A stretch of 64,000 nucleotides of DNA, from NCBI GenBank assembly GCA_050246755.1, contig JBFWVL010000004.1:1-64000 (forward strand), read 5' to 3'. A program made the translations under genes and the position numbers. Under the pieces are notes generated by a model, which was given only the letters and a program-made list of their open reading frames with translations, did no database searches and was not told the origin of the DNA. Source of the stretch: Bacteriovoracia bacterium. Lineage in GTDB: Bacteria > Bdellovibrionota > UBA1018 > CAIPTA01. Below are positions 43,352-45,396 of the stretch, piece after piece; the stretch's first letter is position 1; every line of letters begins with the position of its first letter.

Positions 43352-43843
43352 ATGAAGGCTGAAGGCTTACTTTCGAGCAAAGAACTCTACCGGGCCCTGG
43401 AAAATGCGGCCGTAGACCTCTATGGGTTCGGCGTGGTCTGCCAAGCGGGAGTTGCCTGGCTGGCGGAGCCGGACTTGCTCGATACTCTTCTGCTCGGTCT
43501 CGAAAATTTTTGGTTTACCGAAAACGAATCGGGCCTCCTTTCTCACCAAGAATTCCGGGAAGAGTTTTTTCGCTCGGTTTGGGAAAAGGGCAAGGGCCGC
43601 AAGACCGAGCCTCAGGGCGGAGCGGAAGTTCCGTTGGGCCACGAAGAGATGGCTTTTTATCAGCTCTCCCAGCTGGCGCGGGCGGCAACCTATTTGCGTA
43701 CCCGGAAAGGAATGCCTTATTCGAGCATCGCTTTGATTTTGGGCTACAGCGAAGACCAGGTAAAAAAAGAGATCGAGAAGGCTCGGGAATATTTGTTGGG
43801 CCGGAGCCTGCGCGATTTTAACTGGTCGGAGGAAGACTTTTGA
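43352..43843 (+). CDS. degenerate ECF sigma-like protein
   Basis: region-4-like LS..ARAATYLR..GMPYSSIALILG..EDQVKK..AR. Confidence 0.65.
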   Translation: MKAEGLLSSKELYRALENAAVDLYGFGVVCQAGVAWLAEPDLLDTLLLGLENFWFTENESGLLSHQEFREEFFRSVWEKGKGRKTEPQGGAEVPLGHEEMAFYQLSQLARAATYLRTRKGMPYSSIALILGYSEDQVKKEIEKAREYLLGRSLRDFNWSEEDF

Positions 43844-44199
43844 AGTTACCCGACCGCCAAGAATTTTTAGATTATGCCGAAGGAGCGGCGGGCCAAGATG
43901 CCGAAGTTCAGCGGCAGATTCTCAAGCTGCTGGCTTCCAGCCCGGTAATTCGCGAGCAGCTGGCCGAGCTCAAGCGGGACCTTTACCTGGCTTCCGTGCA
44001 GGTGCCGGACTATATCCCTTCCGCCGAGTTCGGTGCGGAAATTGCGCGGCTCACCCAATCTTGGGCGCAGCTCGCCTATACCCGAAAATTCTCGCTGAAG
44101 AATTTTCACCGGAGCCGTGAGTTTTTCAATCTGCTTTTATTCCTCGCCGCCGCCGCTCTGCTTGTGCTCGCCGGAATCGGGATCAAGATTTTAACCTGA
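43840..44199 (+). CDS. putative membrane-anchored anti-sigma-like protein
   Basis: FLDYAEG helical N-domain, C-terminal TM; overlaps sigma-like gene. Confidence 0.6.
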   Translation: MKLPDRQEFLDYAEGAAGQDAEVQRQILKLLASSPVIREQLAELKRDLYLASVQVPDYIPSAEFGAEIARLTQSWAQLAYTRKFSLKNFHRSREFFNLLLFLAAAALLVLAGIGIKILT

Positions 44200-44249
44200 G
44201 GCGAAGCTTTGCTTTTAGTTTCTATCGCGCCGGAATTTTAAGAAAAATT

Positions 44250-44389
44250 TATTTAGAAGGGGGGCAAAAGGTCGCTTTTCCCGAAGCAAGAATCTTTCGA
44301 TGGAGGGGAATATTCCTTTAGGTGGCAAGGAATTAAAAGACGCCCCAGGAAAAACGACCTTTTGCTTAGCTAAATTCTTTTTAGCTATG
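44250..44389 (-). ncRNA. candidate sigma54-dependent structured small RNA (ends approximate)
   Basis: 5' hairpin plus 25-bp stem (20 WC + 5 G.U, wobble only on minus strand); no ATG-initiated ORF; starts about 12 nt after sigma54 box. Confidence 0.7.
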
Positions 44390-44399
44390 AACCCTATAG

Positions 44400-44415
44400 A
44401 GCAACAGCCATGCCA
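44400..44415 (-). promoter_or_regulatory. sigma54 -24/-12 promoter
   Basis: TGGCATG-GCTG-TTGCT matches TGGCAYG-N4-TTGCW. Confidence 0.85.
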
Positions 44416-44461
44416 GGTTTTTGTTTAGCGCTTGTTAAAGTAAAAATTTGGCAAGCGGGGC

Positions 44462-44474
44462 TAAGTGCTTGAAA
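44462..44474 (-). promoter_or_regulatory. IHF-like site
   Basis: TTTCAAGCACTTA vs WATCAANNNNTTR (1 mismatch), adjacent A/T tract. Confidence 0.55.
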
Positions 44475-44529
44475 TAAAAAGAGCGGAAAAAATAAAAAAT
44501 CACGCCGCATCAAGCTATTTTGCGGGCTT

Positions 44530-44590
44530 CGGTTCCAATCTGGGTGGGGACAAAGAAGGGGCGCTCAGGCATGGTTTCAGATTGGAACCA
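44530..44590. promoter_or_regulatory. tandem dyad sites, candidate enhancer (UAS) for a sigma54 activator
   Basis: tggtttca-gat-tggaacca (44572-44590) and inverted 12-bp copy ggttccaatctg (44531-44542). Confidence 0.6.
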
Positions 44591-44595
44591 ATCTT

Positions 44596-45396
44596 TTAGC
44601 CGTAGAGGAATTCATTCGTGAGTTTCACGAATAGGGCAGGGTCTTCCACGTTGGTGCTATGGCCGCGTCCCGGGATCTCATAAAAGCGGCCATTCGGCAG
44701 GAGATTAGCCAATTCCTGGGATAGATTTTTGGGCAAAACGGAGTCGAACTCACCGTGTAGGACCAGTACGGGTTGCTTCACTTTGGGGAGCTCGTTGGTT
44801 ACGTCGGTTACGTTCAGGGCTTTCGGAACCCCGTGCCAGACTAAGGGATGCACGCCGAATGCATCCGAAACGAGCTGTTCTTTCAGCTCCTCACTTACCT
44901 GGGCCTGGTAGATCGTACCCATCATCACGAGTTCGCAGAACGCGCGGTCTTGGCTCATTTGGGTGAAGGCCGCGAACATTTCCGGCGGGAACTGGATTCC
45001 TTTGTGGGACACGGGATCCAGCAATACGGCTCTTTCGTAGAGTCCTGGGTTCTGGCTCATCGCCACGAGGCCGATCAGGCCACCGGTGGAATGGCCCACT
45101 AAACGAGCTTTTTGTATTTTTAGCGAATGGAGCAGGGCATTCGCGTCGGTGGAGAGCACTTCAGGGGCGAGGTCCTTTTCTAAACCAGGCCCTGAGCTTT
45201 TCCCGCAACCCCGCCATTCGGCCAGGATAATTCGGCCTTTCAGGTTAGGCTTCGCGTTCGCGCGCCATACTTCTACGGCGGGTTGCCACCAGGCGTTCGA
45301 GGCAAGGTTTCCGTGCAAAAAAAGCGTGTCGGAGGGAACGAGACCCTCAAGAATTTCGTAGTGGAGCTGAATGCCGTCGCGTTCGAGAAAGGGCAT
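44596..45396 (-). CDS. alpha/beta hydrolase
   Basis: FLHGN, GHSTGG, GEFD, GH triad motifs. Confidence 0.92.
   Translation of the reverse strand: MPFLERDGIQLHYEILEGLVPSDTLFLHGNLASNAWWQPAVEVWRANAKPNLKGRIILAEWRGCGKSSGPGLEKDLAPEVLSTDANALLHSLKIQKARLVGHSTGGLIGLVAMSQNPGLYERAVLLDPVSHKGIQFPPEMFAAFTQMSQDRAFCELVMMGTIYQAQVSEELKEQLVSDAFGVHPLVWHGVPKALNVTDVTNELPKVKQPVLVLHGEFDSVLPKNLSQELANLLPNGRFYEIPGRGHSTNVEDPALFVKLTNEFLYG

Follow-up and report, generated by a model that had tools for sequence, protein, structure and literature searches.

Here, we report that the region at 44250-44415 of the window, i.e., the whole 64-kb stretch of Bacteriovoracia DNA under analysis, very probably carries on its minus strand a gene for a small structured RNA behind a sigma-54 promoter. 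The analysis was computational and sequence-based throughout. We are highly confident that the region is a real, transcribed, single-copy non-coding RNA gene; a gene is favored over chance because the promoter box, the fold and a C-rich single-stranded stretch are all conserved in relatives and strict sigma-54 boxes are few in the genome. On this evidence, it is a new small RNA (sRNA) family, previously uncatalogued, of a known regulator design (sigma-54 plus a response regulator acting on an sRNA), and all its members come from part of a single class of uncultured Bdellovibrionota. The full statement, i.e., the gene together with the mechanism proposed below, has in our judgment slightly better than an even chance of being right. 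An earlier sequence-only reading of the window had described an unannotated structured non-coding RNA behind a sigma-54 promoter, in a region without an open reading frame (ORF). Conservation, fold and promoter all support this description; every element it named was found at its coordinates on the minus strand, and the ORF list holds nothing of note over the element. The next genes downstream are convergent, so the RNA is not a leader.

Promoter, fold and conservation of the RNA

The window's genome (3.55 Mb in 10 contigs, 95.7% complete) encodes rpoN. There are only 26 strict sigma-54 boxes (pattern TGGCA[CT]N5TTGC[TA]) on both strands of the 3.55 Mb, against about 23 sigma-54 activator genes. 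One of these boxes, TGGCAT-GGCTG-TTGCT, has its GG at 44414/44413 and its GC at 44402/44401, and agrees to the base with the box that the sequence-only reading had placed at 44400-44415. Promoter geometry puts the RNA start near 44389. A relaxed box (GG[CT]A[CT]-N5-6-TGC) lies upstream in 21 of the 23 homologous RNA loci having upstream sequence; the locus of genome G005, whose copy is cut by a contig end, was left out of this count. In one exception, G068, the upstream sequence meets a contig end and only a degenerate box is seen. The other, G010, has no sigma-54 box, and a sigma-70-like promoter, TTGCAA-17-TATAGT (L025:1453-1481), sits at the same place, i.e., at the same distance from the RNA as the sigma-54 box elsewhere; this genome is also without the candidate activator described below. 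G010 looks like a promoter swap, and such a replacement argues for selection on transcription itself. With a -24 GG/-12 GC box, rpoN, enhancer-binding proteins and upstream sites all present, we consider it very likely that the RNA gene is sigma-54-dependent. Its own promoter is kept at a fixed distance from the RNA, as in an sRNA gene.

The fold of the RNA is dominated by a long helix. Counted by script on the minus strand, it has 25 pairs, 20 Watson-Crick and five G.U, and when these positions are read on the plus strand the 20 Watson-Crick pairs remain while the five G.U pairs turn into A.C/C.A mismatches, a recount identical to what the sequence-only reading had given. RNAfold reproduced the two hairpins, the inner helix and the unpaired C-rich stretch of that reading as well; its minimum free energy (MFE) structure uses 24 of the 25 long-helix pairs, with G44341 going to the inner helix. 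The 163-nt minus strand folds at -55.5 kcal/mol, compared with -30.4 +/- 4.0 kcal/mol in 200 shuffles (z = -6.2, no shuffle as good), and the plus-strand fold reaches only z = -2.9. In the f4 family of the class, hairpin 1 is absent and the RNA starts approximately 6-8 nt ahead of the long helix, leaving approximately 18 nt from the promoter to the long helix, GGCUGCUUUCACC.../...GGUGAAAGCAGCC. In the 3' internal loop, which separates the inner helix from the long helix's 3' arm, most f4 members also keep CUCAA as a further unpaired motif; the f1 family has UUCUUG at this place.

The long helix is most simply read as an intrinsic terminator stem, because a U run follows it in most members, e.g., U8 directly after it in G002 and UUUUUUA in G007. 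The window's genome itself speaks less well for this, as it has only a poor U run there (CCUUUUGC CCCCCCUUCU), which leaves the 3' end uncertain. Stems of the long-helix kind are not scored by a simple terminator scan.

Compensatory changes support this structure, and the covariation that the sequence-only reading had asked to be checked is found in both alignments. In a plain MAFFT alignment of nine sequences with a hand-written structure of 45 pairs, 90.4% of cells are paired and both partners change in 20 of the 45 pairs; with shuffled columns the number is 10.0 +/- 2.1 (none of 500 as high), and with slid partners it is 4-9. RNAalifold alone called 17 of 38 pairs compensatory. With 24 members aligned to the covariance model R2, 41 of 45 pairs are compensatory and 87.7% of cells are paired, compared with 38-51% for slid partners, in an alignment which is fitted to R2 and so leans towards the structure of R2. 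The exposed anti-Shine-Dalgarno motif proposed earlier also holds: all 24 members have UUCCCCUCCA unchanged, and it lies within AUUCCCCUCCAU, which is unpaired in both the MFE and the consensus folds. Hairpin 2 behaves differently from the long helix; its six pairs, intact in 97.8% of cells, show hardly any variation. The RNA is conserved in structure, with compensatory changes, as expected of a non-coding gene.

Two other explanations of the locus bear on these data. A very small protein has a negligible probability: the core in the window's genome is spanned by a UUG-initiated frame of approximately 37 codons, but there is no AUG in its RNA, one-base indels (CCACCUAAAGGAA vs CCACCUAAGGAA; AAUAUU vs AAAUU) fall within the conserved core and shift the frame between close members, and the substitutions in the helix are compensatory. 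The core indels and the missing AUG together argue against a peptide. Alternatively, the locus could be a DNA-level or decayed element, e.g., an inverted repeat which only terminates the flanking genes, with a silent promoter box. With A and U runs on its flanks, the long helix does resemble a bidirectional terminator. A terminator, however, needs no invariant 10-nt unpaired core, no box at fixed distance (21/23 loci) and no activator sites (20/21 loci), nor would it account for the sigma-70-like promoter that replaces the box at the same place in G010, and we regard this explanation as very improbable.

The RNA belongs to no family in Rfam 15, as the sequence-only reading had expected: over the whole window no match reached the gathering score, and a search of 43800-44900 at E <= 10 gave three chance-level matches (a microRNA, a long non-coding RNA and a small nucleolar RNA) at 13-15 bits against cut-offs of 50-63, none of them on the RNA. 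Known families including Qrr, GlmY/GlmZ, CrcZ, 6S, SRP, tmRNA and the c-di-GMP riboswitches are ruled out in the same way, by the lack of a covariance-model match. Both BLASTN and the covariance model find a single copy in the window's genome. A repeat element (of the repetitive extragenic palindrome or miniature inverted-repeat transposable element kind), which the earlier reading had named among the findings that would overturn it, is rejected, since all 24 matching genomes have one locus each; the second match in G117 is the opposite strand of the same locus.

By BLASTN the stretch was found in 8 of 40 relatives. Model R1, built from nine sequences, matched 10 of the order's 11 genomes once each, all but G009, and found the RNA in 19 of the 127 genomes of the class sample. 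R2, rebuilt from 19 sequences, found it in 24 of the 127: nine of nine f1 genomes, the window's included, one of two in f2 and 14 of 75 in f4, with none in 41 genomes of eleven other families of the class. Members that lay outside the model that found them are G002 (R1) and G066, G068, G076, G098 and G110 (R2). In a phylum sample of 151 genomes, there was no covariance-model match outside family f1; scans of more than 40 genomes ran with stricter filters, by which weak members of the family may be missed. An exact-pattern scan for the core in 185,579 species genomes returned eight stretches, all from uncultured Oligoflexia, Bdellovibrionales or Bdellovibrionota metagenome-assembled genomes.

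Table 1. Position, strand and basis of the features at the sRNA locus (window coordinates)
Feature	Position	Strand	Basis
Putative sigma-54 (-24/-12) promoter, TGGCATGGCTGTTGCT	44400..44415	-	Sequence match; relaxed box in 21/23 assessable homologous loci; rpoN in genome
Predicted small RNA, ~130 nt	44255..44389	-	5' end from promoter geometry, 3' end from end of long helix (+/- ~10 nt); covariance models match 44253-44397
Hairpin 1, UAGCUAAA-AAGAA-UUUAGCUA	44367..44387	-	5/7 pairs with compensatory changes among 9 sequences; in f1 and f2, absent in f4
Long helix, 5' arm	44341..44365	-	20/21 modelled pairs covary in 24 members
Inner helix, 6-7 bp	about 44340-44335 with 44298-44292	-	Sequence, RNAfold
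Hairpin 2, AUUCCUU-GCCACCUA-AAGGAAU	44312..44333	-	Stem UUCCU(U)/(A)AGGAA conserved in sequence, loop variable
Single-stranded C-rich stretch AUUCCCCUCCAUC, proposed seed for GGAGGGG-type ribosome-binding sites	44299..44311	-	TTCCCCTCCA invariant in 24/24, unpaired in consensus fold
Long helix, 3' arm	44264..44288	-	Followed by U run in most members; probable intrinsic terminator stem
Putative distal activator site, GGTTCCAA in RNA sense	44582..44589	-	~-174 from -24 GG; motif at -260..-40 in 20/21 loci with promoter
Putative proximal activator site, TTGGAACC in RNA sense	44531..44538	-	~-124; motif conservation, site-pair scan
Convergent neighbors: 163 aa (sigma-70 region-4-like helix-turn-helix) and 119 aa (C-terminal membrane helix)	43352..44199	+	Tail-to-tail with RNA gene across family

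Activator sites and a candidate regulator

Upstream of the promoter, sites of the T[TC]GGAAC type, counted in either orientation at -260..-40, are present in 20 of the 21 promoter-bearing loci, usually in 2-4 copies; elsewhere in these loci the background is 0.056 per 220 nt. In f4 they are two direct copies 30-32 nt apart, sometimes as the palindrome GTTCCAA-N-TTGGAAC. The f1 and f2 sites are 40-52 nt apart, inverted in the window's genome, G002 and G003 and direct in G006 and G007. The site octamer is not over-represented in the window's genome (80 copies, approximately 108 expected). Among the 26 strict sigma-54 boxes of that genome, only the one of the RNA has two sites upstream, and among its nine site pairs only that of the RNA has a sigma-54 box nearby. 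The five RNA-bearing f4 genomes searched, about 20 Mb in sum, hold the site pair six times, and five of the six lie at 90-186 nt before the RNA. Because the gene upstream of the RNA is not the same in every family (f1 has an alpha/beta hydrolase there, f4 mostly a TonB-C protein), the activator sites belong to the RNA gene. The distal site lies within a near-palindrome, AGATTGGTTCCAATCT (44572-44590, plus strand), directly after the stop codon of the alpha/beta hydrolase; the simple terminator scan scored this near-palindrome as terminator-like on the plus strand, and it may serve two purposes.

Activator sets were compared by reciprocal best hits between four genomes with the RNA (the window's, G010, G116 and G066) and two without it (G009 and G074), and two activators of the window's genome fitted the presence of a sigma-54-driven RNA. 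One of them, at C1:460824-462290, is an NtrC-type protein with receiver, AAA+ and HTH_8 domains. Its orthologues, taken at >=60% identity, are in 21 of the 24 genomes with the RNA and in seven of the 103 without. The other, at C1:1683368-1684960, was set aside as too widespread, since 67 of 127 genomes have relatives of it (E <= 1e-105), G010 and many RNA-less genomes among them. There is also a nearly universal, PilR-like paralogue of the first candidate, 56% identical in the copy of the window's genome and sharing a contig with pilM in several genomes.

Several points count against the NtrC-type protein. The 60% line was set after the scores were known, between orthologues at 60-66% and the paralogue group at 53-58%. 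Three genomes with the RNA have no orthologue, and two of these, G085 and G098, have both the RNA and the sigma-54 box; the third is G010. The seven genomes with an orthologue but no RNA are G078, G079, G088 and four f8 genomes; in the assemblies of the first three no convergent neighbor gene was found either. A search with R2 at E <= 1 in five RNA-less genomes with the orthologue gave no hidden divergent copies, and the paired activator site is also absent from these five. Kinship enters the co-occurrence count, in which genomes sharing ancestry are not independent, and the association of regulator and RNA is a lead and not a proof. We therefore name the protein at C1:460824-462290 only tentatively as the activator of the RNA gene, with somewhat less than an even chance. 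It is encoded in an operon (C1:458078-463127; L221:6078-11127) together with a CHASE2 histidine kinase, a 231-amino acid protein and a 251-amino acid protein, the regulator standing third, between the 231- and 251-amino acid proteins; the 231-amino acid protein has no Pfam match and no signal peptide, and the 251-amino acid protein has a lipoprotein-like signal sequence.

Possible mode of action

We propose that an enhancer-binding protein at the TTGGAAC sites would switch the RNA gene on upon a signal, the best candidate being the NtrC-type response regulator (C1:460.8-462.3 kb) in its operon with the CHASE2 histidine kinase. The C-rich stretch of the RNA would then pair with Shine-Dalgarno regions of the GGAGGGG type and block the initiation of translation, and this would take place without Hfq. 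In the window's order the best single target candidate would be the leader of pilM, which belongs to type IV pilus assembly. Hfq was not found in the window's genome, which is 95.7% complete, and together with the unpaired, invariant CCCCUCC this fits RNAs with C-rich seeds that pair with G-rich ribosome-binding sites. Judging from the anatomy of the RNA, action in trans by pairing with ribosome-binding sites is plausible, and we place it a little below an even chance.

The case for pilM is as follows. Its leader in the window's genome, cuAUGGAGGGGAAccAUG, is predicted to pair with a 12-nt seed at -19.9 kcal/mol. GGAGGGG stands before pilM in ten of ten RNA-bearing genomes of the order, and the RNA-less G009 has GGAGGAA; this conservation within one order, with a single contrast genome, may be plain relatedness. 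The genomes of the order share a strongly conserved pilM leader, GGAAAAAGGAUUUUU ... GGUCCCUAGGGAGGGGAACC AUG (C1:1167520-1167560, L075, in the window's genome; L076-L084 elsewhere), and a palindrome in it, CCCUAGGG, overlaps the ribosome-binding site and may be a regulatory site itself. Further genes on the site list of the window's genome are fliF, an flhG-like gene, a PilZ response regulator, glutamate dehydrogenase, a deoxynucleoside kinase and a secreted 447-amino acid protein, in a list which is noisy, drawn from one genome and named from reading the sequences.

Outside the window's order the outcome of the target screens is neutral to negative for this mechanism. In f4, no such ribosome-binding site lies near any candidate start of pilM in the 5 of 12 fetched leaders with a placeable N-terminus. 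The pattern GGAGGGGAA-N0-6-ATG occurs at about the same rate in five RNA-less f4 genomes (16 in ~19 Mb) and in five RNA-bearing ones (19 in ~21 Mb). The f4 genes that bear the site, mostly for secreted proteins, share no orthologue with the top 40 candidates of the window's genome, and no target conserved across the RNA family came out of the screens. The trans-acting pairing with Shine-Dalgarno sequences that the sequence-only reading had put forward is thus supported in one half, i.e., the unpaired invariant C-rich seed, while for the other half the screens gave no family-wide target. We regard pilM as an unlikely target. A pairing with 16S rRNA was also tried and dropped; the 16S rRNA of the window's genome offers only GGGAAUAUU opposite the f1 core and f4 cores are without AUAUU, and we took the match as a coincidence.

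Two further observations that do not favor base pairing, i.e., a hairpin 2 stem conserved by sequence and not by covariation, which could mean recognition by a protein, and a CsrA encoded in the window's genome, lead to a different possibility, namely that the RNA binds CsrA or another RNA-binding protein as a decoy or carrier, with the invariant AGGAA-N-AUUCCCCUCCAU as the site. The near absence of covariation in hairpin 2 and its adjoining invariant block is unusual for a purely structural stem, f4 keeps CUCAA as a second single-stranded motif in the 3' internal loop, and the lack of a conserved mRNA target would be expected. CsrA decoys, however, are known to carry many GGA motifs in loops, and the RNA has a single conserved GGA, inside the stem of hairpin 2, which is not the multiple loop GGA of CsrB/RsmZ-type RNAs. 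Deeply conserved, invariant single-stranded seeds are, moreover, typical of base-pairing RNAs with multiple targets, and no candidate protein co-occurring with the RNA was seen as far as tested. Protein binding thus appears improbable.

Relation to known systems and the convergent neighbors

The proposed design has several known counterparts. The quorum regulatory RNAs Qrr1-5 with LuxO in Vibrionaceae, which are sigma-54-dependent (PMC10162802), are alike in the sRNA promoter and the NtrC-type response regulator. They are also alike in the signaling output and an invariant single-stranded region. The RNA here differs from Qrr in having no Rfam match, in carrying its seed within a long terminator helix, where Qrr has four stem-loops, and in its activator sites, which read TTGGAACC. 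Qrr RNAs need Hfq, and Hfq was not found in the window's genome.

GlmY/GlmZ with GlrK-GlrR (QseE-QseF) in Enterobacteriaceae are alike in the two-component sigma-54 activator, in an sRNA that is apparently its main or only direct target and in several activator sites upstream of the promoter (PMC3045617, PMC4152352, PMC7073468). GlmY is reported to act as a decoy for RapZ and not through a C-rich seed (PMC3045617, PMC4152352, PMC7073468). Here there is no Rfam match and the RNA gene is not beside the two-component system; compared with GlrK-GlrR, there is a CHASE2 sensor in the candidate kinase and no signal peptide on the middle protein of the operon. The gene order of the operon recalls GlrK-QseG-GlrR.

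CJnc230 (FlmE) of Campylobacter jejuni is likewise an RpoN-dependent sRNA (10.1101/2023.04.21.537696; journal version PMC11187230). It represses the translation of a few mRNAs, and RNase III takes part in its making (10.1101/2023.04.21.537696), which is relevant to the 25-bp helix of the RNA in the window. CJnc230 is cut from the flgE mRNA, whereas the RNA here has its own promoter and activator sites, and the two sequences are unrelated. A functional likeness, and only that, may exist with the C-rich-seed RNAs RsaE/RoxS of Firmicutes and RepG of Helicobacter, which need no Hfq and pair through unpaired C-rich motifs with G-rich ribosome-binding regions; their phyla, promoters and folds differ from those of the RNA here. 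Searches of article full texts brought up no sigma-54 small RNA from Bdellovibrionota, and to our knowledge nearly nothing is known of RNA regulators in this phylum beyond Bdellovibrio itself.

A more far-reaching form of the proposal can be considered, i.e., a relay in which the CHASE2 kinase and the NtrC-type regulator, itself a paralogue of the PilR-like activator, would have this single RNA as their sole direct output, and the RNA would reprogram the translation of surface and motility genes (e.g., pilMNOPQ) as a lifestyle switch in a predatory-type, Hfq-less lineage. It is compatible with the data because the site pair is close to unique in each genome tested, regulator and RNA tend to occur together and the member without the box is also without the regulator; even so, we hold it to be speculative and rather improbable. 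If true, it would add a further independent case of a two-component system acting through sigma-54 on one small RNA, as with Qrr and GlmY, and would open a way to learn what these uncultured and probably predatory bacteria sense. At present, the work stands as a solid gain in annotation and brings no new principle. Its yield is an RNA family of 24 members, together with the covariance model, promoter, activator sites and a candidate sensor system, which can be tested in members that can be grown or sampled.

The genes that converge on the RNA deserve a separate remark. In the window's order they are two adjacent ORFs, of 163 and 119 amino acids, the stop of the one overlapping the start of the other. 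The f4 genomes have one protein of approximately 255-290 amino acids at this position, with a helix-turn-helix of the sigma-70 region-4-like kind, a zf-HC2 motif and a C-terminal membrane helix (L028:399-1229, L030:1664-2545, L042:1609-2373 and others); most other genomes of the class also encode it as one gene. From architecture and position, we read the two-gene form as a split version of the f4 protein; BLASTP and the A6 profile gave no link between the two forms.

This arrangement raises the possibility that the RNA acts in cis on the convergent membrane-protein gene, as an antisense RNA, by transcriptional collision or through a shared bidirectional terminator. The RNA is tail-to-tail with the neighbor family in 19 of the 21 listed member loci, the neighbor stop falls 28 nt past the core in three f4 loci, i.e., within the 3' arm of the RNA (from the ORF listing), and the inverted repeat folds on the plus strand too (z = -2.9). 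The neighbor family, however, is present in 96 of the 127 class genomes, most of them without the RNA, and in 20 RNA-less genomes with the neighbor gene neither a sigma-54 box nor a site pair was found behind it. Moreover, the neighbor gene in the window's genome ends approximately 60 nt beyond the helix, other genes lie downstream in G002 and G067, and both the G.U pairs, which would be A.C mismatches on the plus strand, and the invariant unpaired core point to selection on the minus-strand RNA. Action in cis is, in our view, quite improbable. By the same distribution the neighbor was rejected as a partner of the RNA, and also as its target, the starts of the neighbor gene in 14 loci having no site of the GGAGGGG type. 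An ECF-like (extracytoplasmic function sigma factor-like) neighbor in G009 was not found with the query used, which proves nothing. The synteny thus seems to reflect an inherited position, perhaps with a shared terminator, and not a functional pair, and the neighbor is probably not part of the mechanism. The neighbor protein resembles a membrane-anchored regulator of the anti-sigma type which carries a DNA-binding-like domain of its own.

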